From Myxococcota bacterium (GTDB taxonomy: Bacteria; Myxococcota_A; Polyangia; Polyangiales; Sandaracinaceae): a stretch of 64,000 nt of DNA. Under the pieces are notes generated by a model, which did not search any database, was not told the origin of the DNA, and saw only the letters and a program-made list of their open reading frames with translations. Both the position numbers and the translations under genes were made by a program. Position 1 is the first letter of the stretch. Each line of letters starts with the position of its first letter. Where the stretch lies: assembly GCA_036149055.1 (NCBI GenBank), contig JAYZQJ010000007.1:64001-128000 (forward strand). The letters are read 5' to 3'. Below are positions 47,238 to 64,000 of this stretch, one piece after another.

Positions 47238-48310
47238 GGCGCGCCCCCGGTCGCCCGCCCGAAGGCGGCCAGCACGTGGTCCACGTCGGCGTCGGTCAGC
47301 AGCGGGTGGAGGGGGATGGCGAGGCCCTGGGTCTCGATCCGCTCGGCGTGCGGGAAGGGGCCCCCGGCCGCGCGTCCGGCCAGGCTGCCGACCCGGTGGA
47401 GGGCGTAGCTCAGCCGCCCCGCCTCGACCCCGTCCGCCCGGAGGGCCTCGACCACCGCGTCCCGATCCAGGGCGTCCGGGAGCACCACGCCGAAGGTCTG
47501 CCAGTTGCTCTCCGCCCCGGCGACCGGCGCCTGCAGCCCGAAGCCCCCGAGCGCCTCCTGGTAGCGCGCCGCGATCGCCCGGCGGCGGGCCACGATCGCG
47601 TCGAGCCGGTCGAGCTGAGCGAGCCCCATCGCGGCCGCGAGCTCCGTCAGCCGCTGGTTGCCCGCCGGCTCCGCGAACGCGCCCGGGCCGCTGATGCCGT
47701 GGTTTCGGAGCTGCCGCAGCCGGGCGGCCAGGGCGTCGTCGTCGGTGAGGCAGGCCCCGCCTTCGCCGGTGGTGAGGAGCTTGCGCGGGTGGAAGCTGAG
47801 GCAGGCGATCGCGCCGAACGAGGGAGAGGGGCGGCCGCCGATCTCGGCCCCCAGCGAGCAGGCCGCGTCCACCACCACCGGCAGATCGGGCAGCGCGCGC
47901 TCGACCCCGGGGTGATCGGCGGGGTTGCCGAACTGGTCGATGACGATGGCGGCCCGGGTGTCGGCGCGGCGCGCGGCGGCCAGCGCCTCCGGGCTCGCGT
48001 TCCAGCTGGCGGGGTCCACGTCGACCAGGCGCGGGGTGGCGCCGCGGCGGCAGATGGCGTGGGCGGGGCTCGGCCAGCTGAGATCGGGGCAGAGGACCTC
48101 GCCGCCGCTCACGTCGAGCGCCTCGAGGGCGAGCTCGAGGGCCGCGGTGCCCGAGCCGCAGGCGATCGCGTGTCGGCGACCGCAGCGCTCGGCCAGGCGC
48201 GCCTCGAACGCGGCGACCCGTTCTCCCATGACGAGCATGCCGCTCTCGAGCACGGCGGCGACGCCCTCCTGCTCGGGCGGGCCGATCCAGGGCTTCGCGA
48301 GTCGAATCAC
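47234..48310 (-). CDS. DegT/DnrJ/EryC1/StrS aminotransferase
   Basis: SGTAALEL, DAACSLG, SFHPRKLLTTGEGG. Confidence 0.93.
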   Translation of the reverse strand: MIRLAKPWIGPPEQEGVAAVLESGMLVMGERVAAFEARLAERCGRRHAIACGSGTAALELALEALDVSGGEVLCPDLSWPSPAHAICRRGATPRLVDVDPASWNASPEALAAARRADTRAAIVIDQFGNPADHPGVERALPDLPVVVDAACSLGAEIGGRPSPSFGAIACLSFHPRKLLTTGEGGACLTDDDALAARLRQLRNHGISGPGAFAEPAGNQRLTELAAAMGLAQLDRLDAIVARRRAIAARYQEALGGFGLQAPVAGAESNWQTFGVVLPDALDRDAVVEALRADGVEAGRLSYALHRVGSLAGRAAGGPFPHAERIETQGLAIPLHPLLTDADVDHVLAAFGRATGGAP

Positions 48311-48359
48311 GCGGGGAGCATACGCAATTCGGGGCCCGGGGTTGGTATACTTCGCGGCC

Positions 48360-51300
48360 GTGCCCACCCCCTCGACCCCGCCGCCGGAGAGCCTCGGGCG
48401 CTACCGGATCGTGCGTCGCCTCGGCGCGGGCGGGATGGCCGAGGTGTTCCTGGCCAAGAGCACGGGCGCCGAGGGCATCGAGAAGATCCTGGTGGTGAAG
48501 CGGGTGCTGCCCACCTTCGCGCGCAGCCCGAAGTTCATCTCGATGTTCGTCGACGAGGCGAAGGTGGCGATGCGCCTCAACCACCCGAACATCGTGCAGG
48601 TCTACGCGTTCGAGCAGGTCCGGGACGAGTTCCTGCTCGCGATGGAGTTCGTGGATGGCCTCGATCTGGGGCGCCTCATCTCGGGAGCCCGCAGGCAGGG
48701 GCGCCGCATCCCGGCCGCGCTCGCCGCCTACGTGGTGAGCGAGATGGCCAAGGGGCTCGACTACGCGCACAACCGCAAGGACGAGAGCGGCGTGCCGATG
48801 GACATCGTGCACCGGGACGTCAGCCCCCAGAACGTCCTGCTCAGCTACGACGGCATCGTGAAGATCGCCGACTTCGGCATCGCGCGGGCCCGCCTGGTCA
48901 GCGAGGAGACCGGGGTCATCAAGGGGAAGTTCTCCTACATGTCGCCCGAGCAGGCGCGCGGTCAGCGCGTGGACCGGCGCAGCGACGTGTACTCGATCGG
49001 CGTGCTGCTGGCCGAGCTGCTCATGAACCGCTCCATGTACCCCGGCCAGCAGGGCATGGAGGTGCTCGAGCAGGTCCGCGACGGCAAGCTCACCCTGCCG
49101 CGCCAGGTCGACCGCGGGTGCCCGCCGGAGCTCGACGAGGTCGTGCGCCGGGCCACCGCCTTCGATCGGGAGGAGCGCTTCCAGACCGCCCGCTCCCTCG
49201 CCGGGGCCCTGTCGCGCTGGCTCCACGGGCAGGAGGAGATCCTCGACGCGCTCGACCTCGAGCAGTTCATCAACGACATCGCGCCCCGCGAGGTCACCAG
49301 CCCGGACGGCCCCACCGGCGGGCGGACCTCGGGCACCGCGGAGACCCACGCCTCGCTGCCTCACGCCGCCGGCCGCGAGCTGCGCGAGCGCCGCAACGTG
49401 GTGGTGGTGCACGGGCGGCTCCGGGGCGAGGCCGAGATCACCGGGGTCGAGCGCACCGGCCGGAGCATCTCGGACCAGGCGGTCCGGGTGCTCGACGACA
49501 TCGCCTACAAGTACCACGCGATCCTCGACTGGCCGGAGGGGCAGGGGAAGCGGAGCTTCCGGCTCCTGATCGGGCTCGGCCGGGTCTCGGTCGACGACCC
49601 GCTGCACGCCGTCCGGCTCGCGATGGACGTGCTCGACGCGCTCGAGGGCCTCAGCGCCGACCTGCTGGTGCCGCTCACCGCCTCGGTGGGCCTGTCGCGC
49701 GGCGTGGTCGCGACGGTCCGCGCGGCCAGCGGACGGCTCCGCTACCAGCCCCTCGAGGGCGTCTTCGAGGTCGCGCGCGAGCTGGGGGATCACGGCGAGG
49801 CGAGCGAGATCCTCGCGACCGGCGAGGTCTTCCGGCTGGCGCGCCGCGCGTTCTCGTTCGACGAGCGGGACGTCCGCGAGATCACGGTGACCGGGACCCA
49901 GGCCGGGCCCCGGCGCTTTCGCGCGTATCGTCTGCGAGGCGCCCGCACCCGTGAGGAGCGCGCGGCCGAGGCCCTCGCGGTGGCCGGCCAGGTCGGGCTC
50001 TTCGGCCGCTCCATGGAGATCCAGGCCCTCGTCGACGCCTACGAGGAGCTCGTCCGGGACCGGCAGAGCGCCTACTTCTGCATCACCGGCGAGCTCGGCG
50101 TCGGCAAGAGCGCCCTCGTGGCCGCGGCGGTCGACGCGTTCGAGCCCGCCCCGCGCCTGCTGCGCATCGAGTGCGTGTTCGGCAGCGCCGAGGTCCCCTA
50201 CGGCGCGGTGGGCGAGCTGGTGCGCGAGGCCTGCGACATCCCCGAGGACGCGTCGGCCGAGGAGGCGCGCCGGCAGCTCGCCGAGACCCTCGAGCGCACG
50301 CTCCCGCCGGACGCGCGCGGCCCCACCGCCGACGCGCTCGAGCCGCTGATCGCGCCGATCGCCTCCGAGGACCCGGGAGACCGCAGCGCAGGTTTGATAC
50401 GGGCCGTGCGCACCCTGCTGGCCGGGCTCGCGAGCGGCGGCCCGCTGGTGGTGTGGGTCGACGCGCTGCAGTTCACCGACACCCCGAGCCTCCAGCTCAT
50501 GTCGCGCTTGATGGCGCACACCTATCCGGCGCCGCTGATGGTCGTGCTCTCGAGCCGGGCCGACGAGCGGGTGGAGGAGCTGCTCGGCGGGGTGCCGCGC
50601 ATCGATCTCGAGGAGCTGGACGACGACGATCGCCACAGCCTCGTCGAGGCGCGCTTCGGCGGCGCGAAGGTGCCCCGCGAGATCCAGGACAAGATCGTGC
50701 ACCGCGCGGGCGGGAACCCGTTCTTTCTCATCGAGCTCATCGACGCGCTGCTCGAGCGCGACGTGGTCCGCATCGAAGGGGAGGGGGCGGCGCGGGAGGT
50801 GGTCCGCCGCAGCGGCGCCGCCTTCGCGCTCCCGACCACCCTCGAGGACGTGATCGCGGCCCGCCTCGCCGAGCTCCCGGAGCACGAGCGACACGCGCTG
50901 CGCTGGCTGGCGGTGACCGGACCCGGGCTCCGGGTGTCGGAGCTGCGCACCCTGACCGGCGAGGATCTGGCCGGAGATCTGAGCGCGCTCGCCGAGCGCG
51001 GCCTGGTGCAGGAGCGGGCGGGCGGGGTGCTGTTCTTCCCGAGCGCGGTCGTGCGCCACGTCGCCTACGAGAGCATCGACTCGAGCGACCGGGTGCGCAT
51101 GCACCGGATGATGGCGAACTACCTCACCGCGCTCGACGCGGTGCCGCCCGCCCGGCTGGCCCATCACCGCGAGCAGGCCGGGGACCGCTCCGGGGCCGCG
51201 AGCGCGTATCTGGCCGCGGCGCAGGCGGCTCACCTCATGTACAGCCACGAGGACGCGATGCGCTTCTACGGGCGCGCGCTCTCGATGGTCGCCCCGGACT

Positions 51301-52589
51301 CGCGCCTCGCCTTCGAGGCCCACGAAGGGCGAGAGCAGATCCTCCGGGCGCTCGGGCGCCGAAACGAGCAGCGCAACGAGCTCGAGGCGCTCCGCGCGCT
51401 GGCGGAGCGGTCCCGGGACTCGCATCAGATCGCGATCGCCTTCAGCCGCCTGGCCCGCTTCGACCTCGACGCGGCTCGCCCCACCGGGGTCGACGCCCTG
51501 CTCCGGCGCGCGCTCGACGCCGCCATCCAGGGTGAGGACAAGGCCTCCGAGATCGAGGCGCTGCGCCTGCTCGGCCAGCTCCGGCGTGACCAGGGTGATA
51601 CCCAAGGCGCGATCGAGGCGCTCGACCGGGCCCTGGCGCGGGCCGGCCGCGACGTGGACTTCCTGAGCGCGCGCGGGCAGACCCTGGTGCAGAAGGCCAT
51701 CCTGCTCTGGCGCTCCGGCCGCATCGACGACTCGCTCGAGGCGGCGGCCGAGGCGGTCGCGATCTTCCGCCGGCTGGGCCTCAAGGGACACGAGGCCCAC
51801 GCCCTGTCGAGCCTCGGCGTCGCGCTCGCCCACAAGGGCAGCTTCGAGGACGCGATCTCGATGATGCGCACCTCGATCCTGCTCGATCGCGAGATCGGCG
51901 ACCGGCTCCACCTCGGTCGAAAGGTATCGAACGTGGGCCAGCTTTACGCCGAGCTGGGCGACGTGGACAACGCGCTCGGGTTCCTGCAGCGGGCGCTCGA
52001 CGTGTTCGAGCGGGTCGACGACCAGTCGGGTCAGTCGGACACCCTCTGCGCGATGGCGGAGCTGCTCGCGGAGCAGGTGGGCGATCTCGAGGCGGCCGAC
52101 GGAGTGCTCTCGGACGCCCGCGCCCTCGCCGAGCGCATCCAGGATCCCTACGATCTCGCGCACGTGGACCTGGTCGAGGCCGGGCTCTGGATGGAGAAGG
52201 GGCAGCCTCGCCGCGCCGAGCGGCTCGCCAAGGAGGCGGCGTCGCACGCCCGGGCGGCCGGGGCCCGGGGCTACGAGCTGCTGGCGATGGCCGCGCGCTC
52301 GGACGCGCTGGCCCGGCTCCACGAGCGGGACGAGGCCCGGCGCCTGGCGGGCGAGGTCCTGCGCACCGCGCGGGATCGCTCCGACGTCGAGCGCGCCGAC
52401 CGGGTCTACTACCAGGTCGCGGTGGCGCTCGCGCGCTGCGAGCAGCCGAAGGAGGCGGAGCGGGCCATCGCCAACGCGCGGGCGGTCGTCGACGGGCGCC
52501 TCGAGCACATCCGGGACGAGCGGCTCCGCGCCCTCTATCTCGACTCGAAGTGGGTGCGATCCATCCGGCGGGATCTACCGACTGCCTGA
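48360..52589 (+). CDS. Ser/Thr kinase - degenerate class III cyclase-like - STAND ATPase - TPR protein
   Basis: GGMAEVF, HRDVSPQN, KGKFSYMSPE; RERRNVVV..DDPLHAVRLA..SVGLSRG; GELGVGKS; GNPFFL; TPRs. Confidence 0.9.
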   Translation: MPTPSTPPPESLGRYRIVRRLGAGGMAEVFLAKSTGAEGIEKILVVKRVLPTFARSPKFISMFVDEAKVAMRLNHPNIVQVYAFEQVRDEFLLAMEFVDGLDLGRLISGARRQGRRIPAALAAYVVSEMAKGLDYAHNRKDESGVPMDIVHRDVSPQNVLLSYDGIVKIADFGIARARLVSEETGVIKGKFSYMSPEQARGQRVDRRSDVYSIGVLLAELLMNRSMYPGQQGMEVLEQVRDGKLTLPRQVDRGCPPELDEVVRRATAFDREERFQTARSLAGALSRWLHGQEEILDALDLEQFINDIAPREVTSPDGPTGGRTSGTAETHASLPHAAGRELRERRNVVVVHGRLRGEAEITGVERTGRSISDQAVRVLDDIAYKYHAILDWPEGQGKRSFRLLIGLGRVSVDDPLHAVRLAMDVLDALEGLSADLLVPLTASVGLSRGVVATVRAASGRLRYQPLEGVFEVARELGDHGEASEILATGEVFRLARRAFSFDERDVREITVTGTQAGPRRFRAYRLRGARTREERAAEALAVAGQVGLFGRSMEIQALVDAYEELVRDRQSAYFCITGELGVGKSALVAAAVDAFEPAPRLLRIECVFGSAEVPYGAVGELVREACDIPEDASAEEARRQLAETLERTLPPDARGPTADALEPLIAPIASEDPGDRSAGLIRAVRTLLAGLASGGPLVVWVDALQFTDTPSLQLMSRLMAHTYPAPLMVVLSSRADERVEELLGGVPRIDLEELDDDDRHSLVEARFGGAKVPREIQDKIVHRAGGNPFFLIELIDALLERDVVRIEGEGAAREVVRRSGAAFALPTTLEDVIAARLAELPEHERHALRWLAVTGPGLRVSELRTLTGEDLAGDLSALAERGLVQERAGGVLFFPSAVVRHVAYESIDSSDRVRMHRMMANYLTALDAVPPARLAHHREQAGDRSGAASAYLAAAQAAHLMYSHEDAMRFYGRALSMVAPDSRLAFEAHEGREQILRALGRRNEQRNELEALRALAERSRDSHQIAIAFSRLARFDLDAARPTGVDALLRRALDAAIQGEDKASEIEALRLLGQLRRDQGDTQGAIEALDRALARAGRDVDFLSARGQTLVQKAILLWRSGRIDDSLEAAAEAVAIFRRLGLKGHEAHALSSLGVALAHKGSFEDAISMMRTSILLDREIGDRLHLGRKVSNVGQLYAELGDVDNALGFLQRALDVFERVDDQSGQSDTLCAMAELLAEQVGDLEAADGVLSDARALAERIQDPYDLAHVDLVEAGLWMEKGQPRRAERLAKEAASHARAAGARGYELLAMAARSDALARLHERDEARRLAGEVLRTARDRSDVERADRVYYQVAVALARCEQPKEAERAIANARAVVDGRLEHIRDERLRALYLDSKWVRSIRRDLPTA

Positions 52590-52592
52590 CGA

Positions 52593-53762
52593 ATGCTCGC
52601 GCTGGTCATGAGCGGAGGCGGGGCGCGCGGTGCCTACGAGGTGGGAGTGCTGTCCTACCTGTACGGGCAGCTGGCGCAGAGCCTCGGCCCGCCGCGCTTC
52701 GACATCGTCTGCGGCACGAGCGTGGGCGCGATCAACGGCGCCTTCATGGCCTCGGTCGCTCACGATCCGGGCCCGGGGACCCGGCGCCTCGAGGCCCTCT
52801 GGCGGGACCTCGAGATGCCCCAGGTGCTCGGGTTCAACATGATCCAGGCCCAGCGCCTCCACCGGGTCCTGCTCGGCGGGCGGCGCGGCGCGGGGCTCTT
52901 CGACGCCTCGCCGATGACCGACATCATCCGGTCCGAGATCGACTACCGGCAGCTCGCCCGGAACGTGCGGGCCGGCCGCCTCAAGGCGCTCACCGTCACC
53001 GCGACCCACGTCCCGACCGGTCAGCCCACGGTGTTCGTCGACAAGCACCCGAGCGTGGCCCTGCCGAAGCTCTCGGCCCGCAACGTGGTGGTGCGCACCG
53101 CGCACGTGATGCCCTACCACGTGCTCGCATCGGCTGCGATACCGATCCTCTTCCCGCCGGTCTTCATCCGGACCGATCTCTACTGCGACGGGGGGCTGCG
53201 CCTGAACACCCCGCTGGGACCGGCGATCCGCCTGGGCGCGGACCGGGTGCTCGTGATCGGCATGACCGGCCAGACCCACGACCGGGTGGAGATCCCGCCT
53301 TCGCGCTTCCCCGGCTTGCCGTTCCTGCTCGGCAAGGTGCTCGACGCGTTCCTGCTCGACCACGTGAACCTCGACATCGAGGAGCTCGAGCGGATCAACG
53401 AGCTGCTCCAGGACGGGATCGCCGCTTACGGGCCCGAGTTCCTCGACCGTGTCAACGCCGAGGCCGCCAAGCGCGGGCACCCGCCGAGGCGGCTCATCGA
53501 CTCGCTCGTCATCCGCCCGAGTCGCGACATGGGCGAGATGGCCGCCGACTTCCTCCGGCGGGAGCGGGTCGCGATCCGGCGGCGCCTCGGCCGGGCGTTC
53601 CTCCGGCTGATGGACGTCGGGGAGGGGGCCGACTCCGCGGATCTGGCGAGCTACCTGCTCTTCGACGGGGGCTTCTGCTCCGAGCTGATCGAGCTCGGCC
53701 GGGCCGACGCCGCCGCCCGCCACGACGAGCTCACCGCCTTCCTGAGCCCTCGCGGGTCGTGA
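52593..53762 (+). CDS. Patatin-like phospholipase
   Basis: GGGARG, GTSVG, ASAAIP, DGG. Confidence 0.94.
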   Translation: MLALVMSGGGARGAYEVGVLSYLYGQLAQSLGPPRFDIVCGTSVGAINGAFMASVAHDPGPGTRRLEALWRDLEMPQVLGFNMIQAQRLHRVLLGGRRGAGLFDASPMTDIIRSEIDYRQLARNVRAGRLKALTVTATHVPTGQPTVFVDKHPSVALPKLSARNVVVRTAHVMPYHVLASAAIPILFPPVFIRTDLYCDGGLRLNTPLGPAIRLGADRVLVIGMTGQTHDRVEIPPSRFPGLPFLLGKVLDAFLLDHVNLDIEELERINELLQDGIAAYGPEFLDRVNAEAAKRGHPPRRLIDSLVIRPSRDMGEMAADFLRRERVAIRRRLGRAFLRLMDVGEGADSADLASYLLFDGGFCSELIELGRADAAARHDELTAFLSPRGS

Positions 53763-53794
53763 TCCCCCAGGGCTGGGGAGCGCCTGGGACAAAT

Positions 53795-53871
53795 TGTGGA
53801 TAAAGTTCCCCAAGCCTTCGAGACCACGGGCGTTTCGACAGAAAAAAAGCCTGTGCTATCGTTGGGGATAG
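53795..53871 (+). promoter_or_regulatory. DnaA box plus sigma70 promoter
   Basis: Perfect TGTGGATAA 53795-53803; TCGACA-N16-TATCGT with extended TG; TGGGGATAG 53863-53871. Confidence 0.55.
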
Positions 53872-53890
53872 AGGTATCAAAGAGCGTGAC

Positions 53891-54634
53891 ATGCCTCCGT
53901 TGAAAGAGGTCTCAACCTCGCCCTCACCCGAGGAGTGCCTTCGAGAGGCTCTCCAGGCGGAGAGCCCCAGTATACGGGCACATTTCGCCGAACGAGGGCT
54001 CGCGGCGGAGGGGCCGCTCGAACCTGATACAGAGGTGCTCTTGCTACGCCAGCTCTACCTGGCGCACCTCGACTCGCATCGATTTCGCGACGCCGCGGAC
54101 ACCGCCCTCCGCATGAGCGCGCTCGGTCCGCTGAAGGACGTCTGTCACCACGACGCGTCCCGGGCGCTCGCCGCCCTCGGAGACCTCGACGCGGCGGTGG
54201 CCCAGCAGCGCCTCGCCGCCCGCGCCGCGCCCCCGGACCGCCGCAGCTTCCAGTGGTGGTCGCTGGCGACGCTCCTCCAGCAGGCCGGCGACCGGCAGTC
54301 TGCCATCCGGGCGCTGCGCCGCGGCGAGCGCTGGGCCCACGACGACCGGCCGCTCCTCCGGGCGCACCGGGCGTGGCTCCGGATCGAGGAGGGGCAGATG
54401 CCCCGCGAGCTGGACGCGATCTGCGCCGACCTCGAGCGCTCCCGGGGCGCGGCCGGCTACGGCCAGCTCGTGCTCGGCATGATCCGTCACCGGATGGGCG
54501 ACGCCGCGCGGGCGGCCGTGCACCTCCGCGCCTTCCTCCGGCGAAACGCCTCCGCGGACGCGGCCAAGGCGATCACCCTGCGCGAGGAGCTCCGGCTCGC
54601 GCGTGAGGCCCTCGCCGGCATCGACTCCGAGTGA
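53891..54634 (+). CDS. TPR-like hypothetical protein
   Basis: Helical repeats (ALAALGDLDAAV, LGMIRHRMGDAARA). Confidence 0.7.
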   Translation: MPPLKEVSTSPSPEECLREALQAESPSIRAHFAERGLAAEGPLEPDTEVLLLRQLYLAHLDSHRFRDAADTALRMSALGPLKDVCHHDASRALAALGDLDAAVAQQRLAARAAPPDRRSFQWWSLATLLQQAGDRQSAIRALRRGERWAHDDRPLLRAHRAWLRIEEGQMPRELDAICADLERSRGAAGYGQLVLGMIRHRMGDAARAAVHLRAFLRRNASADAAKAITLREELRLAREALAGIDSE

Positions 54635-54735
54635 CAGCCGCCCGTAAGGCGGGAGGACGCCTTCTTTCGCCCGGCGGCCTGCGGTAGGTTCCCCACGCGG
54701 CCGCGGGGGATGGCGGGCCGCGAGGAGGAGGATCG

Positions 54736-56154
54736 ATGAGGCACCTTGGCTTGATGACGGCGCTCGCGCTGACCTGCGCGGCGTGTGGTGAGTCCCACAG
54801 CGCGGACGCCGGGACCACGATCACCTTCGACGCCGCGCTCCCCGACAGCGGGCCGGGCGATCTCTGCGGCAACGGGGAGCTCGACCCGGGCGAGCGCTGC
54901 GACGACGGCAACACCACGCCGGGAGACGGCTGCGACGCCGAGTGTGTGCGCGAGCCCTACTGCGGCGACGGGAGCGTCGACGGCGACGAGGTCTGCGACG
55001 ACGGCAACAACGCCTCGGGCGACGGCTGCCGGAGCGACTGTCGCAGCGACGAGACCTGCGGCAACGGCATCACCGACCACGCCCGCGGCGAGCTCTGCGA
55101 CGGCGAGGCCAACTGCGGCCCCGACTGCATGACGGTCCCCGGCTGCGGCGACGGCACCGTCACCGACCCCGAGGTGTGTGACGACGCGAACACCGATCGC
55201 TGGGACGGCTGCGACGCGGCGTGTCGCGAGGAGATCGTGCTCGTGATGAGCTCCCTCGGGCTCGGCGACCGCCGGACCGGGTGCGACTTCAACGGCGACG
55301 GCAGCCCCGACAACGCCTTCGCGCGGGCCCTCGGCCTGCTGGCCACCGCGATCGGGCCGCTCATCGAGCAGCAGATCTCGAGCGGCGACCTGATCATCCT
55401 GCTCGGCATGCTCGGCCTGGACGACCCGACCGGGGTGAACGACGACGACTTCCGGATCGCCTGGATGGTCGGTGAGGACGCCGACGGGGACCCGGACAAC
55501 AACTTCACGGGCGCCGGCCAGTTCCGCGTCACCCCCGACGCCCTCGGCCCCGACGGCGCGCCGCTCACCTCCATCCAGAGCCGCGTCGCGAGCAGCGACC
55601 TGACCGGCGGGCCGGAGGACATCCCGCTCCCGATCGGCTTCCTGCCCATCGAGCTCAAGCAGGGCCGCATCGAGGGCACCACGGTGCCGGACGCGGGCGA
55701 GCTGTTCCGCATCGACGACGGTCTCCTCTGCGGTGGCATCCCGGTGAACCTGCTCGCGCTCCTCGGGGGCTTCCTCGGCGACATGCTCGAGACCGAGCCC
55801 GCCTGCGACGGCGGCGATCCGCCGACCCTGCTCGACCTGATCATCGCCGGCGGCGAGGCGACCGCGAACTTCGGCGGCATGATGTTCCCGCTGCGCTTCA
55901 GCGCGACGCCGCCCGACCTCGACCTCGACGGCGACGGCCTCGAGGGCTTCACCATCACCTCCGACGGCCCCGACGGCTGCCAGCCGGTGGTGACCGCGTG
56001 CACCGACGGCGACGGCACCGTCATCGACGGCCGGGGCTGCTTCTCGGATCCGCGGATCGGAGACGGGCACTCGGCGGCCTTCGACTTCACCGCCGTGCGC
56101 GGGCAGACCCTCGGAATCGCGGGAGGAACCGGCGGTCCCATGCCGGGCATGTGA
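54736..56154 (+). CDS. Lipoprotein with Myxococcus cysteine-rich (DUF4215) repeats
   Basis: CGNG..E.CDDGN...GDGC repeats; lipobox CAAC; GGAGG RBS. Confidence 0.88.
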   Translation: MRHLGLMTALALTCAACGESHSADAGTTITFDAALPDSGPGDLCGNGELDPGERCDDGNTTPGDGCDAECVREPYCGDGSVDGDEVCDDGNNASGDGCRSDCRSDETCGNGITDHARGELCDGEANCGPDCMTVPGCGDGTVTDPEVCDDANTDRWDGCDAACREEIVLVMSSLGLGDRRTGCDFNGDGSPDNAFARALGLLATAIGPLIEQQISSGDLIILLGMLGLDDPTGVNDDDFRIAWMVGEDADGDPDNNFTGAGQFRVTPDALGPDGAPLTSIQSRVASSDLTGGPEDIPLPIGFLPIELKQGRIEGTTVPDAGELFRIDDGLLCGGIPVNLLALLGGFLGDMLETEPACDGGDPPTLLDLIIAGGEATANFGGMMFPLRFSATPPDLDLDGDGLEGFTITSDGPDGCQPVVTACTDGDGTVIDGRGCFSDPRIGDGHSAAFDFTAVRGQTLGIAGGTGGPMPGM

Positions 56155-56197: not shown

Positions 56198-57496
56198 ATG
56201 CCGGGGGAGCCGCAGACGGAGCTCGACGCGGCCTGGGCCGCCTTCGTCGCGGGCCAGCGGGAGGTCGCGATCCGGCGATGCGTCGCGCTGCTCGAGGCGT
56301 CGCCGGGTCAGCTGGGCGCGGCGCTGCTGCTCACCGAGTTGCTGGCCGAGGCGCGGCCCGACGCGGTGAAGGCGACCGGGGAGCGGCTCGTGTCCGCGTT
56401 CATCGCGCGCGGAGACCTCCCTCGCGCCGTCGTCGCAGCCCGCACCCTGCCCGGCGCCGCCGCCACCAAGGCGATCCGGGCGATCGCGGTCGCGTTCGGC
56501 AAGGGCTCGAAGCGCGTCGCCGACGTGGCCCCGGCGCCTCCGCCGCTGCCCGCGGAGACGGCGGACGCCGACGGCCCCGACGTCAGCGGCGAGGCGCTCC
56601 TCGATCGCGCGGCCGAGGCGCTCCGCACCCTCGACGTGGGCGAGCTCGATCCGGCCGCCAAGATCCCGCTGCTCCCGCTCTTCGGCGCGCTCTCGCCGCC
56701 GGCCCTGGAGCAGCTGCTCTCGGTCTGGGAGCTGCGCACCCTCGCGGAGGGCGAGGCGGCGATCCACGAGGGCACCGAGGGCCGGGACGCCTTCGTCGTG
56801 GTCCGCGGCCACCTCCGCGCCGAGCGGGGCGAGGGCGACGACGCGCTGACCCTGGCCGAGCTCGGGCCCGGCGCGCTCTTCGGCGAGATGGCGCTCGTCA
56901 GCGAGTCGCCGCGCGCGGCCTCGGTCATCGCCGCCGAGCCGGTGCAGCTCCTGGCCGCCAGTCGCGAGGCGCTCGAGAAGCTCGCCGCCAAGACGCCGGT
57001 CATCGGCCAGCAGCTCTCGGAGTTCTGCCGGGCCCGCATGGTGTCGAACCTCGTGCGCCACAGCCCGATCCTCGCCGCGGTGGGCGCGTCCGAGCGCGCC
57101 GCCCTGATGCGCCGCTTCGAGACCCGCCGCTTCAAGCCGGGCGAGCACCTCATCACCTTCGAGCAGGAGCCCGAGGGGCTGTTCCTGGTGGCGAGCGGCG
57201 CCGTCGACGTCGTCGGCCGCGACGCCGACGGGGACGCCCTGAAGGTCGCCGAGCTCGGCCCGGGCGACGTGGTCGGCGAGATCAGCCTCGTGCTCCGCCG
57301 CCCCGCCACCGCCGACGTCGTCGCCACCCACCAGACGGTCGCGCTCGAGCTCGCCGCGGAGCAATTCCGCGAGGCGATCCGCGAACATCCCTCCCTCCTC
57401 GGTGAACTCTACGAGCTCGCCACGAAACGAGAGGACGAGATGAGGACCGTCGTCGCCCAAGAAGCCCTCGACGTCGAAGAGGTGGTGCTCCTGTGA
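56198..57496 (+). CDS. Protein with two cyclic-nucleotide-binding domains and a helical N-terminus
   Basis: LGPGALFGEMAL..PRAASV; LGPGDVVGEISL..PATADV. Confidence 0.9.
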   Translation: MPGEPQTELDAAWAAFVAGQREVAIRRCVALLEASPGQLGAALLLTELLAEARPDAVKATGERLVSAFIARGDLPRAVVAARTLPGAAATKAIRAIAVAFGKGSKRVADVAPAPPPLPAETADADGPDVSGEALLDRAAEALRTLDVGELDPAAKIPLLPLFGALSPPALEQLLSVWELRTLAEGEAAIHEGTEGRDAFVVVRGHLRAERGEGDDALTLAELGPGALFGEMALVSESPRAASVIAAEPVQLLAASREALEKLAAKTPVIGQQLSEFCRARMVSNLVRHSPILAAVGASERAALMRRFETRRFKPGEHLITFEQEPEGLFLVASGAVDVVGRDADGDALKVAELGPGDVVGEISLVLRRPATADVVATHQTVALELAAEQFREAIREHPSLLGELYELATKREDEMRTVVAQEALDVEEVVLL

Positions 57497-58347
57497 TGCC
57501 GTCTCCCGTGCATCGCGCGCCATCGGAGGGTCAGCCGCTGCGCTTCGTCTTCGCTGGCGTCGCGTTCGACGTGCACCCCGCGCCCGGCCTCGAGGTCGAG
57601 GCGCCGACGCCGCTGCGCGACTTCGCGATGCCCTACGACGTGGCGCCGGTGAGCGCCCACGTGCGCTGCGCGATCCAGGGCGGCGCCGCGCCGGGCGCCC
57701 CGGGCCGTCGGGTCGACTGGCGATGGGACTCCGCGTCCTGCTCGATCTCGGCCGCGAGCTGTCGCGCCACGGTGACCCGCTCGGTGCCCGGTCACTACGC
57801 CGCCAGCCTCAGCCTCGGCGACAACCCATGGGCGCTCTCCGACGGCTTGCAGGGCGTCGCCGCCGCCGCGGTGTGTCGCGAGGGCGGTCTCATCCTTCAC
57901 GCCACGGGCGTGCTCTTCGAGGGGCGCGCAGTGCTCTTCCTCGGCCCCTCGGGCGCGGGCAAGTCCACGGCCGCGAGCCTCTGCGCGGGCGCTCGCGCGT
58001 TCGCCTTCGACCGCGCCGCGGTCTACTCGACGTCGGACGGCTGGTACGCGGTCGGGCTGCCGGGGGGAGACCCGGTCGCGCTCGAGAGCGCTCCGGCGCG
58101 GCCCCATCCCGTCGGCGCCCTCCTCCGGGTGGTCCAGCGCGACGCGGTCGCCGTGCGCCGCGCCGGGACCCTGGACGCGCTCACGCTGCTCCGCGAGTCG
58201 GCCCAGGCGCCGGGCACGCACGAAGACGAGGCGCGCTGCCTCGATGCGGTGACCCGGCTCGCGTCCGAGGTGCCGTGCGGCTTCGTCGAGACCGCGCTCG
58301 GCCACGATCTGGGGGCGGCGCTCCGCTCCATCTCGTCGGGGAGCTGA
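57496..58347 (+). CDS. HprK-related P-loop kinase
   Basis: GGLILHATGV..AVLFLGPSGAGKST. Confidence 0.75.
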   Translation: MPSPVHRAPSEGQPLRFVFAGVAFDVHPAPGLEVEAPTPLRDFAMPYDVAPVSAHVRCAIQGGAAPGAPGRRVDWRWDSASCSISAASCRATVTRSVPGHYAASLSLGDNPWALSDGLQGVAAAAVCREGGLILHATGVLFEGRAVLFLGPSGAGKSTAASLCAGARAFAFDRAAVYSTSDGWYAVGLPGGDPVALESAPARPHPVGALLRVVQRDAVAVRRAGTLDALTLLRESAQAPGTHEDEARCLDAVTRLASEVPCGFVETALGHDLGAALRSISSGS

Positions 58348-58348
58348 C

Positions 58349-58636
58349 ATGCCGGTCTCACTCGACACCGTCGTCGCACAGGCAGAGCGGACCGCAGCGC
58401 GGGTGATCGATGGCAAGGCCGTCGTCATCGTCATCGACAAGCAAGAGCTCCACACGCTCAACCCCACCGGCACCTTCATCTGGGAGCGGGCGGAGAGCGC
58501 GCGGTCCGTCTCGGAGCTCGTCGACCAGGTGGTCCGTGAGTTCGAGGTGGACGACGAGACCGCCAGGCGTGACGTGGTCACGTTCGTCGAGCGGCTCGTG
58601 GGCCTCGGCGGGCTGACGGTGGTGGAGGCGAAGTGA
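58349..58636 (+). CDS. PqqD family RiPP recognition element
   Basis: HTLNPTGTFIWE, ELVDQVVREFEVDDETARRDVVTFVERL. Confidence 0.92.
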   Translation: MPVSLDTVVAQAERTAARVIDGKAVVIVIDKQELHTLNPTGTFIWERAESARSVSELVDQVVREFEVDDETARRDVVTFVERLVGLGGLTVVEAK

Positions 58637-59937
58637 GCGTCGACTTCCGTCGCAAGGCGAGCGTCGCGACGGTCCTCGCGGGCCTCCGTCTCGACCCCCA
58701 CGCGCCGATGAGCGCGATGGTCGAGATCGCCGACCGGTGCAACGAAAAGTGCGTCCACTGCTATCAGGTGCAGGGGCAGAAGGGCGAGCTCGACACCGAA
58801 GAGTGGAAGGCCATCTTCGACGAGCTCGCCGAGATGGGGGTGATCCTCCTGACCCTCTCGGGCGGCGAGGCCACGCTGCGCCACGACTTCCTCGAGCTGG
58901 TCGCCCACGCGCGAAAGCTCCGCTTCTCGGTGAAGCTGTTCACCAACGGGCTCAACATGACGCCCGAGCTCGCCCGCTCGCTCTCCGAGCTGGCGGTGCA
59001 GGACATCCAGATCAGCCTCTACTCGACCCGCGCGGAGGTGCACGACTGGGTGACCAACGTGCCCGGGTCGTGGCAGCGCACGGTCGATGGCGTGCGGCAC
59101 CTGGTGGCGGAGGGCCTGAGCGTCACGATCAAGTCGCCCGTCATGAGCTTCAACGCCGACGAGGTGGACGATTACATCTCGCTCGCCGAGTCGCTCGGTG
59201 CGGGCTTCATGCTCGATCCGAACCTCGACGGGACCGAAGAGGGGAGCGCCGAGCCGCAGCAGTTCGGCATCGACGACGAGACGTACCTGCGCCTCCGGAG
59301 CCACCCGGCGCTCGTCACTCCGGTGAAGGGCGACGCCGCGCCCCCGAAGCAGCTCGAGCGATCCGTCTGCGGCGCTTGCAGCGGGCACGTCCACGTCGAG
59401 GCGAACGGCGAGATGCGTCCCTGCACGATGCTCGACGTCCCGGTGGGCGACGCCCGGCGCTCGGTCCGGAGCGCGTGGGCGGAGAACGCGCAGGGGCGCG
59501 CCATCCGCGAGCTGACCTGGAACGACCTCCATGGGTGTCGCGATTGCGACCTCCAGCCCCGCTGCGGGCGCTGCTTCGCGAGCGCGCGGCTCGAGGGCGG
59601 CGACGCGCTGGGGCCCTATCCCGGCGCCTGCCGCCGCGCCAAGCTGCATCATCAGCTCGCGACGGGGAGTGAGCCGATCATCGACGATCCGTCGGGGCTC
59701 GGAGTGGAGACCGGGCCGTACCGACGGATCGCCGGCGACCGCTTCGAGCGCATCCCGGACCGCGTGCTCCCGACCGACGACGCGAAGGCGCGAGAGCTGA
59801 GCTGGACGCGCGGGGCGCGGACGGCGACCGCGCCGCAGCTGATCCGGCCGGGAGACCTCGTTCGAATTCGGCGCCCCGGGGCTAAGAAGTCGAAACTCGA
59901 GGCCGTACCGCCCCGGCATGAAGCGACGCCCGATTGA
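58633..59937 (+). CDS. Radical SAM/SPASM protein
   Basis: CNEKCVHC, SGGE, TNG; CGAC..GEMRPC; CRDCDLQPRCGRC...C. Confidence 0.95.
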   Translation: MSVDFRRKASVATVLAGLRLDPHAPMSAMVEIADRCNEKCVHCYQVQGQKGELDTEEWKAIFDELAEMGVILLTLSGGEATLRHDFLELVAHARKLRFSVKLFTNGLNMTPELARSLSELAVQDIQISLYSTRAEVHDWVTNVPGSWQRTVDGVRHLVAEGLSVTIKSPVMSFNADEVDDYISLAESLGAGFMLDPNLDGTEEGSAEPQQFGIDDETYLRLRSHPALVTPVKGDAAPPKQLERSVCGACSGHVHVEANGEMRPCTMLDVPVGDARRSVRSAWAENAQGRAIRELTWNDLHGCRDCDLQPRCGRCFASARLEGGDALGPYPGACRRAKLHHQLATGSEPIIDDPSGLGVETGPYRRIAGDRFERIPDRVLPTDDAKARELSWTRGARTATAPQLIRPGDLVRIRRPGAKKSKLEAVPPRHEATPD

Positions 59938-60019
59938 TTGCAGCGGCAGGTCTCATCAGTATATGAGCAACGAGCTTGAATTGGTGCCGCCCGGCGGCGC
60001 ATCCGAGGGGAGGAAGCCT

Positions 60020-63000
60020 GTGTCCGTTCATCAGAAGCTGTTCTTGGTGCCGCTGGCGTTGTCGCTGGCGTTGGCCAGTGGCTGCGAGTGCGATCCGGTG
60101 ACCGAGGCGTCGATCACCCTCACCGCGCCGGCCGACGGAACCACCCTGACCCTCGCGGACGACACGAACGAGGCCCTCGAGGGCCTGCAGATCGAGGTGA
60201 CCGCCGACATCGTGGGCCTCGGCGCCGGCGACGAGCTCGGGCTCCGCGTGGACGGCGCGACCGCCTCCACCGCGTTCGTCGGCACCGAGACCACCGTGCG
60301 CTTCACCGACGTCACCCTCAGCTCGGGCAGCCACACCCTCCAGGCTTTCAGCGTGGTCGGCGGGGTCACCTCGCAGGAGGTGATGGTCACCGTCAACGCG
60401 GACTGCTTCGCGGTGAACATCGTGACCCCCGAGCCGGGGGGCGACGTGACCACCCTGGGCCCGGCCGACGACACCGACGGTGAGATGTGTGAAGGAACCT
60501 TCGAGACCACGGTGGTGGCGTCGACCGGCGCCCCCGATGGCAGCGAGGCGCGCGTGTACGTCAACGGCACGCCGCGGCGCACCGCCCGCGTGATGGGCGG
60601 CGCGGTGCGCTTCGAGGGCGTCGCGTTCGACAACCGCGGCCCGACCCCCAACACCCTGCGCGTCGAGGTCTCGGATCCCGACGGGCTGACCTGTGACACG
60701 ACCTTCGGCACCGACATCCTGGTGGACTGCGACGGAGTCAGCTGCGCGATCACGTTGCCCGATTCGGAGTCTCCGTTCCTGAACGAGAGCGACGACCTCT
60801 ACGCGGCGGACGGATTCCAGACCGACTTCGAGGTCACCACCGACGCGGACGGCGCCGGGCAGCCGGTGCGCCTCATCATCGACGGCGACAGCGTCGGGGC
60901 GCTCACCGCCACCCCGGACGGCCTCGTGGCTCGCTTCACCGAGGTGGAGCTCTCGGAGGGCGTGCACCGGGTGCGCGCGCAGTGCGTCGACGAGGTCGGC
61001 AACGTCTCCTTCTCCGGCACCGCCGAGTGGACCGTGGACGTGACGCCGTGCGGTGTCGCCTTCGTCGAGCCGACCGAGGGCCAGCTCTTCAACACCGACC
61101 TCGACGAGTCGACCCCCGAGTTCGACATCCTCTCCAGCGGCACCGCGGGCGCCGACTGCGTCGGTCTCCGGGTGGGCGCGTGCGGTGGCATCGACGCGCT
61201 TCCCTTCGGCACCGCCTCCGAGACCTGGGAGCAGCCGCTCGCGCTCGCCACGACCGCGATGCAGCAGGTGTGCGTCGAGACGCGCGACGAGGCCGGGAAC
61301 GTCAGCCGCGAGATGGTCGGGATTCGCATCCGGACCGAGGCGCCGCAGCTCGAGATCGCCTCGCCCAGCGCGGGCGCTGGTTACAACGTCATGGGCACCG
61401 CGGGCCGCACCGCCGACCTGGACCCGGGCACGCCGAGCTGTGAGGCGATGGTCGAGGTCTACTGCACCGACCCGGGCGAGATGGTGACCCTCCTCCGCGA
61501 GACGCCCTCGACCGTCATCGGCATGGCGAGCTGCGTGGCCGATGCGGGCGTGCCGGCCCCCTACGCGGGCATCGCCACGTTCACGATGGCCGCGCTCCCG
61601 ACGCAGAGCGACGGGATGCCGTACAACATCCTCGCGCGTCAGGAGGCCGACGGGCTCACCGGCACCTCCTCGCCCATCAGCGTCCGCGCCGACTGCGACG
61701 CGCCCAACCTCACGGTCACGCGGCCCATGTGCGGCGCGATGCTGCGCCCGGCGACGCAGGACGAGGACATGTCCACGCCCGGGTTCCAGTACCGGACCAA
61801 CGTCGCCTACACGAACGGGCGCATGGGCGACAGCGTCGTGCTCGAGATCCGGCCGACCGGCGGCGGCGCGCCCGTCTCGCCTCCGATCATGCGCACCTTC
61901 ACGTCGTCGCCGCTCGTGTTCAACGGCGTCGACTACGCGTCCGGCGGCATGCTCGACATCATCGCGACCGCGACCGACAGCGGCGGCAACGTCGCCTCGA
62001 ACCCGACCTGCTCGGTCACGGTCGAGGATCTGCCGACGGTGACCCTCACCGCGCCGATGGACGGCGAGGTGCTGTCGACGGGCGACGACTGCGACGGCGG
62101 CGCGGCCGGCCTGCAGGTCCGCGTGCAGGGCACGACCGATTCGCCGGCCGGCTCCACCGTCGCCGTCGTCATCGGCGGCAGCACCACGATGGGCACCGTC
62201 GGCTCCGGCGGCGCGATCGACGAGTGCGTGTCCATCTCGGACGGGAGCCGCACGATCCGGGTCGAGGTCACCGACACGCGGGGCACGGGCTCCGCGAGCG
62301 TGGCGGTCACGGTCGACACGATGCCCCCGACCACGGCCATCGACGACCTGTCGGCGACGGTCACCGACCGTCGAGGCGGCCTCGTTCGCCTCGACTGGAC
62401 GGCGGTCGCGGACGCGGGCGGCGGTGACCTCACCGCGTACGAGCTGCGCTGCGCGGCGGCTCCCATCACGTCCGAGGCGGACTGGACCGCGGCGACGCCC
62501 GTCCCGGTGATGTCCGTGCCCGGCTCCGGGGGCTCGAGCGAGACCGAGGTGGTCGGCGGCTTCCGGCCCGGCGTCACCCGGAACTGCGCCCTCCGTGGCG
62601 AGGACCCGACGGGCGCGATGACGCCGCTGCCGGCGTCGAGCACCACGATCACCGTGTCGTTCCTCCAGCAGGAGGTGACCAGCGGCACCCCGACGGCCAG
62701 CCGCTTCGGTGTCGACGTGGCCGCGGTCGGCGACGTCAACGGCGACGGCATCGACGACGTGCTCGTCGGTGGCCAGGGCGAGGCCTTCCTCTACTTCGGC
62801 TCGGCGACGGGGCTCGGGGCCACCGCGAGCGTCTCGTTCCCGGCCGCGGGCGGCAGCCTCAGCCACGGCCGCGAGGTCGCGGGCCTCGGCGACTTCAACG
62901 GCGACGGTCGCCCGGACTTCGCCATCACCGACCGTGAGCTCACCGTGGGCGGCGAGTCGTTCCAGGGCGCGGTCTACGTGTTCTTCGGACGCCCGAGCAC

Positions 63001-64000
63001 GACCCCCTGGCCGAGCACCGTGGCCACCGGGGCCACCGGACCGGGTCCCTTCGTCTGCAGCGGCGCCGACCTCTGCTTCGTCGGCGACGACGGAGTGCCC
63101 GGCTCGGGAGCCGACACGTTCGGGCTCCTCGGCTGGTCGGTCGCCCCGGCGGGTGACTTCGACGGCGACGGCTTCATGGACCTCGCGATCGGCGCGCCCT
63201 TCGCGGGGGGCTCCGGCCGCGCCTACATCCTGCTCGGCGACAGCTCCTTCACCTCGGGCTCGGCCATCTCCGTGCCCGGCACCGGGAGCGGTCCGCAGGG
63301 CTTCTTCGTCCAGGCCACCGGCGCGATGTACTCGCAGCTCGGCAACGTGGTCGAGACGCTCGGCGGCGACCTCGGCGCCGACATGCGGCAGGACATCCTC
63401 ATCGGCGCGGCGGGCCGCACCGGCGGCAGCCCGATCCCGGCGGCGGTCCTCTTCCTCGGTGGGCGTGCCCACGCGGGCGGCGGCCTCACCAGCATCGCTC
63501 CGGCCGGCCTCCAGGTCCTCGGCACCGGCCAGGCGAACTCCTTCGGGATCGCCATGTCGGGCGCCGGTGACATCAACGGCGACGGCATCCTGGACGCCCT
63601 CGTGTACGAGAACGCGCTCAACAACCGCGGGCAGGTCACTGCCTACCTCGGCAGCGCGACCGGGTTCACGGGCGCGACCACCTTCACCTACACGAACGAC
63701 ACGCCGGGCCCGAGCAACGACCGCTTCGGCCGCTTCATGAGCATCGGGCGTCACCCGGCGTTGATGCTGCTGTCGGACATCGATGGAGACCGCGTCTCGG
63801 ACGTGGTACTCGGGTCGGTGGAGAGCGAAACGATGCCCGGCACCAGCGCCCTCTTCTACCGCTCCATGTCCTCCTCCTCTCAGGTCCGGTCCGCTCGTGA
63901 CGTGCAATTCGGCTCCGCGAGCACCACGGCGGCGACCGACGGTTTCCGACCGACGTTCGTCGGTGACGTGAACGGGGACGGCGCCGCGGACATCGCAATC
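60020..64000 (+). CDS. Giant surface lipoprotein: Ig-like repeats, FN3-like domain, FG-GAP/VCBS repeats (truncated by window edge)
   Basis: Not in ORF track; GGAGG RBS, VSVHQKLFLVPLALSLALASG-C lipobox; GDVNGDGIDD, GDFNGDGRPD, GDINGDGILD; same frame at 64000. Confidence 0.88.
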   Translation, partial: MSVHQKLFLVPLALSLALASGCECDPVTEASITLTAPADGTTLTLADDTNEALEGLQIEVTADIVGLGAGDELGLRVDGATASTAFVGTETTVRFTDVTLSSGSHTLQAFSVVGGVTSQEVMVTVNADCFAVNIVTPEPGGDVTTLGPADDTDGEMCEGTFETTVVASTGAPDGSEARVYVNGTPRRTARVMGGAVRFEGVAFDNRGPTPNTLRVEVSDPDGLTCDTTFGTDILVDCDGVSCAITLPDSESPFLNESDDLYAADGFQTDFEVTTDADGAGQPVRLIIDGDSVGALTATPDGLVARFTEVELSEGVHRVRAQCVDEVGNVSFSGTAEWTVDVTPCGVAFVEPTEGQLFNTDLDESTPEFDILSSGTAGADCVGLRVGACGGIDALPFGTASETWEQPLALATTAMQQVCVETRDEAGNVSREMVGIRIRTEAPQLEIASPSAGAGYNVMGTAGRTADLDPGTPSCEAMVEVYCTDPGEMVTLLRETPSTVIGMASCVADAGVPAPYAGIATFTMAALPTQSDGMPYNILARQEADGLTGTSSPISVRADCDAPNLTVTRPMCGAMLRPATQDEDMSTPGFQYRTNVAYTNGRMGDSVVLEIRPTGGGAPVSPPIMRTFTSSPLVFNGVDYASGGMLDIIATATDSGGNVASNPTCSVTVEDLPTVTLTAPMDGEVLSTGDDCDGGAAGLQVRVQGTTDSPAGSTVAVVIGGSTTMGTVGSGGAIDECVSISDGSRTIRVEVTDTRGTGSASVAVTVDTMPPTTAIDDLSATVTDRRGGLVRLDWTAVADAGGGDLTAYELRCAAAPITSEADWTAATPVPVMSVPGSGGSSETEVVGGFRPGVTRNCALRGEDPTGAMTPLPASSTTITVSFLQQEVTSGTPTASRFGVDVAAVGDVNGDGIDDVLVGGQGEAFLYFGSATGLGATASVSFPAAGGSLSHGREVAGLGDFNGDGRPDFAITDRELTVGGESFQGAVYVFFGRPSTTPWPSTVATGATGPGPFVCSGADLCFVGDDGVPGSGADTFGLLGWSVAPAGDFDGDGFMDLAIGAPFAGGSGRAYILLGDSSFTSGSAISVPGTGSGPQGFFVQATGAMYSQLGNVVETLGGDLGADMRQDILIGAAGRTGGSPIPAAVLFLGGRAHAGGGLTSIAPAGLQVLGTGQANSFGIAMSGAGDINGDGILDALVYENALNNRGQVTAYLGSATGFTGATTFTYTNDTPGPSNDRFGRFMSIGRHPALMLLSDIDGDRVSDVVLGSVESETMPGTSALFYRSMSSSSQVRSARDVQFGSASTTAATDGFRPTFVGDVNGDGAADIAI

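Follow-up and report, generated by a model that had tools for sequence, protein, structure and literature searches.

The SynChlorMet system (ScmA/C/D/E/F; TIGR04248-04252) combines an HprK-like kinase, a stand-alone PqqD protein, two radical S-adenosylmethionine enzymes of the SPASM type (rSAM) and a short Cys-bearing precursor; the HPr-rel-A system has an HprK-related kinase A. A further point of reference is quinohemoprotein amine dehydrogenase, which has Ig and beta-propeller domains. The qhp operon encodes an rSAM enzyme that introduces cross-links into a small peptide with a leader; the leader is cleaved off by a protease dedicated to this task, and the resulting product is incorporated as a subunit into an exported protein (PMC7876137). 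Phosphorylated lasso peptides such as paeninodin (PadeK) and pseudomycoidin (PsmK/PsmN) come with a YxxP leader, a discrete recognition element (RRE) of peptides made on ribosomes and modified after translation (RiPPs), a kinase, a C-terminal Ser and often an NTP_transf_5 gene. YxxP is the recognition motif of the lasso-type RRE (PMC12710340), and lasso kinases require the residues His-Lys-Asp-Asp and phosphorylate the C-terminal Ser of the precursor, with a nucleotidyltransferase-like gene acting after them (PMC9266682). Sacti- and ranthipeptides (SkfB, CteB, StsB) are made by RRE-dependent rSAM/SPASM enzymes that contain seven auxiliary Cys, and their cores bear Cys; in CteB the substrate Cys is bound by an open auxiliary site (PMC8172795). 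Here, we analyzed a stretch of 64,000 nucleotides from a Myxococcota bacterium of the family Sandaracinaceae (GCA_036149055.1, contig JAYZQJ010000007.1), which will be referred to as the window (G000:C7:64001-128000), and report that the kinase, PqqD and rSAM genes near its end belong to a gene cluster that carries its own precursor peptide, a peptidase and an integrin-like lipoprotein.

The window ends inside the gene downstream of the rSAM gene, which encodes the lipoprotein and stops 51 nt beyond the window end. In the extended sequence, an open reading frame (ORF) for a 54-aa precursor peptide starts 61 bases past the window edge and 9 nt after the lipoprotein gene, and a gene for a peptidase-GNAT fusion follows (Table 1). 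The first-pass annotation of the window had reported neither a short precursor ORF nor a peptidase; since the window ends inside the lipoprotein gene, this absence is a window-edge artefact. ORF calls on the window agreed with its description of four plus-strand genes chained by overlapping or closely spaced stop and start codons, for a cyclic nucleotide (cNMP)-binding protein, the kinase, PqqD and the rSAM, the stop codon of the first overlapping the start of the second. The gene identities were likewise confirmed (two cNMP_binding domains, a weakly HprK-like kinase, PqqD, Radical_SAM plus SPASM), as was the general view of a peptide-maturation system of the kinase, PqqD and rSAM/SPASM kind.

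Table 1: Features of the locus, numbered from the first letter of the window and, past its end, in extended coordinates.
Feature	Position	Strand	Basis
Double cNMP-binding protein	56198..57496 (alternative start 56177)	+	Pfam cNMP_binding x2; flanking gene, outside cassette
HprK/PEPCK-like P-loop kinase	57493..58347 (alternative start 57496)	+	His, Walker A Lys, x-D-R; sub-threshold TIGR04249/TIGR04352
Stand-alone PqqD/RRE	58349..58636	+	PF05402 E 1.7e-17
Radical SAM/SPASM maturase	58633..59937	+	Radical_SAM + SPASM; CxxxCxxC, seven conserved SPASM Cys
1,362-aa predicted lipoprotein, Ig-like stalk and C-terminal FG-GAP head	59963..64051 (G000:C7:123963-128051)	+	Ig-like and FG-GAP families
Precursor peptide gene, beyond window	64061-64225 (G000:C7:128061-128225; L083:10062-10226)	+	Own ribosome-binding site
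S24/S26-type peptidase-GNAT fusion, beyond window	64239-65171 (G000:C7:128239-129171; L083:10240-11172)	+	TIGR02228 E 5e-6, PF00583 E 7e-13

The precursor (MHRDRSTEEREERSTPYVPPAIEESAKFETLALSCGKVPGDGTPQCEVFNPTQS) contains Tyr17 and Pro20 of a YxxP leader motif, Cys35, Cys46 and a terminal Ser54. In 45 aligned precursors the leader Pro and the second Cys were invariant, and the Tyr and the first Cys were at least 90% conserved; a conserved Trp was not found in the cores. Distances and flanking residues were scored in 44 of 49 precursors, five odd ones being excluded because the first Cys was displaced or absent or because a frameshift was likely. The Tyr lies 18 residues from the first Cys in 40 of these 44, two Cys are present in 37, and the C-terminal residue is Ser or Thr in 34. 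The residue at −1 to the first Cys is A/S/T/G in 40/44 and that at −3 is A/S/V/G in 41/44, a small-residue pattern that corresponds to the signal-peptidase-I rule. The peptide of the window's own genome matched no Pfam or NCBIfam family, the precursor set gave only single weak matches to ScmA (1/45, E 0.065) and to a lasso leader model, and all of the 79 database relatives that bear a name are called "hypothetical protein." A genome-wide profile scan matched the operon copy alone, so that the remote substrate of an orphan system, as proposed in the first-pass annotation, was abandoned. Its other proposal, a flanking Cys-rich exported protein as the substrate, was rejected as well, since only 11 of 41 loci have the upstream Cys-rich lipoprotein next to the cassette.

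To place the cluster, homologous loci were collected at the order and the phylum level. Matches to the rSAM (E ≤ 1e-40) occurred in 56 of the 201 order-level genomes, the window's own included, and about 20 kb were read around 40 of the 55 other matches, chosen by score and contig size, plus the locus L041; L042, a distant partial match, was dropped and L040 was excluded as a probable duplicate of another locus. At the phylum level 48 of 301 genomes matched, and 20 of the 45 match rows from outside the order were taken as distant loci. The loci are kin by descent, and counts drawn from them are not independent. Kinase and PqqD were each present in 41/41 order-level loci, and only one rSAM occurred per locus. 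All 34 order-level loci extending past the lipoprotein contained the precursor (33 by profile, a divergent one by ORF call), an S26-like gene with SMxP, HR and GD motifs was found in 28 of them, and the FG-GAP head was encoded in 35 of the 36 loci that were long enough, L045 being the one without a head. Among the distant loci, 15/20 carried the precursor, 13 of these together with S26, and the remaining five (L105, L106, L111, L114, and L115) had no cassette gene at all and represent other systems. The distant rSAM of L115 belongs to a different system; directly after its gene comes a 34-aa peptide that has three Cys close to the end. Within the family, rSAM, precursor and head (E ≤ 1e-40) co-occurred in the same 8 of 32 genomes; the precursor profile was built partly from these eight, the 24 negatives not having been used in building it. 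The family tallies include genome G119, without which they read 8/31 for rSAM, head and precursor and 27/31 for the cNMP gene.

The comparison with described systems led to full membership in none of them. Against SynChlorMet, the weak matches to ScmC, ScmD and ScmE stayed below the model cut-offs (21.7 versus 125 bits for ScmC, 33.6 versus 100 for ScmD, and 105.4 and 91.4 versus 400 for ScmE/ScmF), an ScmA-type precursor was not recovered beyond the single weak match given above, there is one rSAM here instead of two, and the present cluster includes an integrin-like lipoprotein. The HprK-related kinase A of HPr-rel-A likewise scored below its cut-off (21 versus 200 bits). The phosphorylated lasso systems share the YxxP leader and the terminal Ser or Thr; however, neither a lasso cyclase nor a B2 transglutaminase-like protease was detected among the own cassette genes or the 32 (of 81) neighbour proteins scanned. 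Their place is taken by an rSAM and an S26 peptidase, the predicted core starts with Cys, and the kinase is of the x-D type where lasso kinases carry D-D. In comparison to sacti- and ranthipeptides, only two Cys of variable spacing are present, the rSAM falls below every NCBIfam family cut-off, and the clusters of those peptides lack the kinase, S26 peptidase and lipoprotein seen here; at the level of sequence, the seven conserved Cys might fit an open auxiliary site. The parallel to qhp would hold if the peptide joins the exported protein: here neither a heme subunit nor a QhpF-type exporter or QhpG was found, the cores lack a conserved Trp from which a quinone cofactor could form, and the partner would be a lipoprotein that does not look enzymatic. 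By analogy, the system would work like a hybrid of the leader and kinase logic of phosphorylated lasso peptides and sacti-/ranthipeptide chemistry. It is an undescribed rSAM RiPP variant whose distinctive feature is the embedded integrin-like lipoprotein. No description of it was found in the full-text literature, as far as that literature was covered (subscription journals lie mostly outside), and six taxon terms gave no match in the spreadsheet of the rSAM compendium PMC10288494. For an uncharacterized rSAM branch, the cluster supplies a concrete candidate substrate along with the complete set of enzymes; this branch unites the leader and kinase logic of the lasso type with a probable leader peptidase that is S26-like.

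The best NCBIfam models of PqqD were lasso PqqD models, again below cut-off, and RRE-Finder mentions about 300 lasso-type discrete RREs adjoining rSAMs (PMC7470986). With the conserved leader motif, it is very probable that PqqD would bind the YxxP leader and that the 54-aa peptide is the substrate of the enzymes. The kinase weakly matched the ScmC/HprK_rel_A models (E ~1e-4, far below cut-off), and its profile weakly matched PEPCK and HprK chains. As noted in the first-pass annotation, it reads F-D-R where many relatives carry D-D. The His and the Walker A Lys are invariant; in the close kinases the first Asp was absent in 23/23 and the second, which is the catalytic base in HprK, was present in 23/23, and overall 14 of 38 kinases have D at the first position. 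Precursors encoded next to x-D kinases keep their terminal Ser, so that kinase activity is plausible, and phosphorylation of Ser54 is a fairly probable step. Among the proteins neighbouring the precursor, 81 were called and 32 scanned, and 8 of the latter are products of NTP_transf_5 genes. A different arrangement was observed in family f17 (L071-L073, L075-L080, and L082), where the cassette opens with S26, kinase 1, kinase 2 and PqqD; kinase 1 is mostly S-D-D, kinase 2 lacks both Asp where read and is likely a pseudokinase, and most of these loci carry an NTP_transf_5 gene in antisense orientation behind the precursor.

The CxxxCxxC motif of the rSAM and its seven SPASM Cys (246, 264, 302, 305, 311, 314, and 333) were conserved in 55-56 of 56 sequences. 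Its structure model reached a pLDDT of 93.7, and the sactisynthase SkfB was the best solved match by sequence as well as by fold, followed by PqqE. The six catalytic-site positions defined in PMC10288494 read Y, S, F/T, S, T, and M/Q/D. Since the open auxiliary site of CteB binds a substrate Cys and seven SPASM Cys are present here, thioether formation is the leading candidate for the chemistry, and we consider it reasonably probable that the enzyme links the thiol of one Cys, or of both, to carbons of the backbone or the side chains. For the peptidase, the S26 motifs together with the −3/−1 pattern point to a cut before Cys35, which would likely free a 20-residue core; the fused GNAT domain might perhaps acetylate this core, a step we regard as rather doubtful. 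In L081 the residue predicted to be the catalytic Ser is replaced by Cys in the S26-like gene (L081:14815-15531), and the first Cys has been lost from the precursor of this locus.

The unusual part of the cluster is the lipoprotein, which ranges from about 800 to 2,400 aa across loci and stays directly upstream of the precursor through rearrangements. A domain scan returned Ig-like and FG-GAP families only, and the head profile matched integrin alpha chains (E 3e-28). The lipoprotein gene was found directly upstream of the precursor in 12 of the 15 distant precursor loci, 10 of these 12 being rearranged to the order lipoprotein-precursor-kinase-rSAM, usually with PqqD in front. This adjacency and the shared presence within the family favour a link between lipoprotein and peptide, and the chances that the lipoprotein is a functional partner of the peptide appear about even. 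Kinase, PqqD, rSAM, lipoprotein, precursor and peptidase/GNAT occur together in a recurrent gene content and order, and taken together they probably form one gene cluster that matures the peptide for use at the surface with the lipoprotein, where the mature product likely acts. We put forward only tentatively that the peptide binds on the lipoprotein head; a 20-residue peptide, cross-linked and phosphorylated, would then be the ligand or small subunit dedicated to an integrin-alpha-like surface head. Peptide and receptor might form a rapidly evolving pair that functions in adhesion or self-recognition and is encoded, across the phylum, in a single operon, which is equally speculative. If true, this would supply bacterial FG-GAP heads with a native partner and extend the roles of RiPPs to structure or recognition at the cell surface.

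Several observations weigh against this reading of the cluster, part of them against its chemistry. The core has no conserved acceptor residue among the 45 aligned precursors, and a seven-Cys SPASM domain is not diagnostic of thioether formation. Moreover, the similarity of the rSAM to SkfB amounts to only 27%, with PqqE as the next match, and the first Asp of the motif that lasso kinases are reported to need is missing from the kinase. In 6 of 34 loci, no S26 gene was present within the 3-5 kb of downstream sequence examined. The missing acceptor, together with a Cys spacing that varies from 6 to 19 residues, would also fit a different rSAM chemistry on the same substrate, such as a C-C link, epimerization or oxidation of the C-terminal Ser/Thr, the Cys pair then forming a disulfide or a metal site. 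The folds of PqqE, SuiB and anSME match almost as well as that of SkfB, and an eighth Cys (C249) occurs in the own enzyme and in 19 of 56 sequences, which points in the same direction. On the other hand, this position is Gly, Ala or Ser in 37/56, and the core has neither a conserved aromatic residue as used by C-C linkers nor the Val-Tyr end that MftC requires (PMC10288494). We thus regard a different chemistry as possible though unlikely, and thioether formation as the better candidate.

Further observations against the proposed reading concern the lipoprotein and the route of the peptide. Genome G081 (95% complete; L086) keeps an intact-looking lipoprotein gene at the cassette site without the cassette, G060 (L123) has a lipoprotein gene at a second locus with no precursor beside it, and 3 of the 15 distant precursor loci have no lipoprotein. 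The G060 gene adjoins sulfotransferase- and glycosyltransferase-like genes as read by eye, and distant cassettes without an FG-GAP protein adjoin a 1,034-aa C25 peptidase (L109) or S41 and M16 peptidases (L104). The peptide might accordingly be an ordinary diffusible signal or antimicrobial, in which case the lipoprotein would confer immunity or be a co-regulated adhesin without contact to it. The lipoprotein standing apart from the cassette, the other peptidase genes found instead of it in two of the three distant loci, and variable tailoring genes after the precursor (sulfotransferase, methyl-, glycosyl- and acetyltransferase) favour such a diffusible product. The adjacency of lipoprotein and precursor survives gene rearrangement, however, and genomes of 2.7-4.0 Mb (L062-L064) retain the cassette together with a shortened lipoprotein. 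No exporter was conserved among the loci examined, in agreement with the first-pass annotation; this speaks against a diffusible peptide and at the same time against the surface reading, in which the peptide would have to reach a surface protein. The nearby ABC ATPase was rejected as a dedicated exporter since it is present in 28 of 32 family genomes regardless of the cassette. On balance a diffusible role seems doubtful, and maturation for surface use with the lipoprotein is preferred. As to individual loci, L062 and L064 (G007 and G028; 2.7-2.9 Mb) keep the whole cassette with a shortened lipoprotein, of 846 aa in L064, and swappable tailoring-type genes follow the precursor in L041, L044, L046, L049, and L050, namely sulfotransferases (three loci), an APS kinase, a methyltransferase-S26 fusion and glycosyltransferases.

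The rSAM might alternatively mature the giant lipoprotein itself, with the peptide as a helper. The lipoprotein has many Cys and its gene follows the rSAM in nearly all order-level loci, which favours this explanation, but a YxxP-leader peptide was present in every locus that was long enough, and L045 as well as three distant loci have rSAM and peptide without the lipoprotein. A read-through fusion of lipoprotein and peptide was rejected, since their relative frames were random (16/16/14 of 46). Maturation of the lipoprotein is thus very unlikely, and the short peptide is retained as the substrate.

The first-pass annotation had further suggested that an orphan system is possibly gated by a cyclic nucleotide through the cNMP-binding protein. 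The overlap of its stop codon with the kinase start fits this model, as does its adjacency to the cassette in 22 of the 38 order-level loci with enough upstream DNA. Yet the gene-neighbourhood comparison that the annotation had recommended yielded adjacency in 0/20 distant loci, the cNMP gene was present in 28 of 32 family genomes compared to 8 of 32 for the rSAM, and in 20 of those 28 it occurred without the rSAM. Conversely, the cNMP protein was unmatched at E ≤ 1e-20 in 4 of 10 cassette-bearing genomes tested (G007, G028, G016, and G327). The locus was read in 19 of the 20 genomes with cNMP and no rSAM match. Eight of these cassette-free loci, two near-closed genomes among them, represent empty sites in which the cNMP gene runs straight into a histidine-kinase gene, the very gene that follows the cassette in the window's own genome; in another locus only the lipoprotein is present, one is cut off by the contig end within a kinase gene, and nine have other genes. 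In the cassette-free loci other genes follow the cNMP gene within 5-170 nt. Pfam detected no DNA-binding or catalytic domain in the protein, and its site 1 keeps the conserved Arg (PRAA), which site 2 does not (PATA). Gating was rejected on the basis of the phyletic pattern and the empty sites, and with a precursor in the operon an orphan system gated by this protein is extremely improbable. Most likely, to judge from these gene arrangements, the cNMP gene is a neighbour at the cassette insertion site. The annotation was to be considered refuted if the cNMP gene proved not to be co-conserved or if the loci carried a precursor of an already described RiPP class; lack of co-conservation was observed, whereas the precursor belongs to no such class.

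The same border was evident in comparison to a genome of the same genus (L043), in which the flanking genes are 81-91% identical and the cassette genes (57493-64000) only 41-61%, the identity drop falling between the cNMP and kinase genes. A recent swap of the cassette was rejected, as this genome remained the sister in both the cNMP tree (100/99) and the rSAM tree (95/87; 17 rows each). The rSAM branch is about four times as long as the cNMP branch (0.97 versus 0.23 changes per column), and faster evolution of the cassette appears to fit the divergence better than a recent swap. Because both trees keep the two genomes as sisters, the cassette is best described, at the level of sequence comparison, as inherited, fast-evolving and often lost.

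RNA contigs from four runs (three samples, two studies) cover the cassette, and a single 7,408-nt contig from an RNA run reaches from the kinase to the peptidase; DNA carry-over is possible, and no transcription is claimed. Upstream of the cNMP gene, the window contains a conserved block (47925-56154) encoding a Ser/Thr kinase-AAA-TPR protein, a patatin, a TPR protein and a lipoprotein with myxo_disulf repeats.

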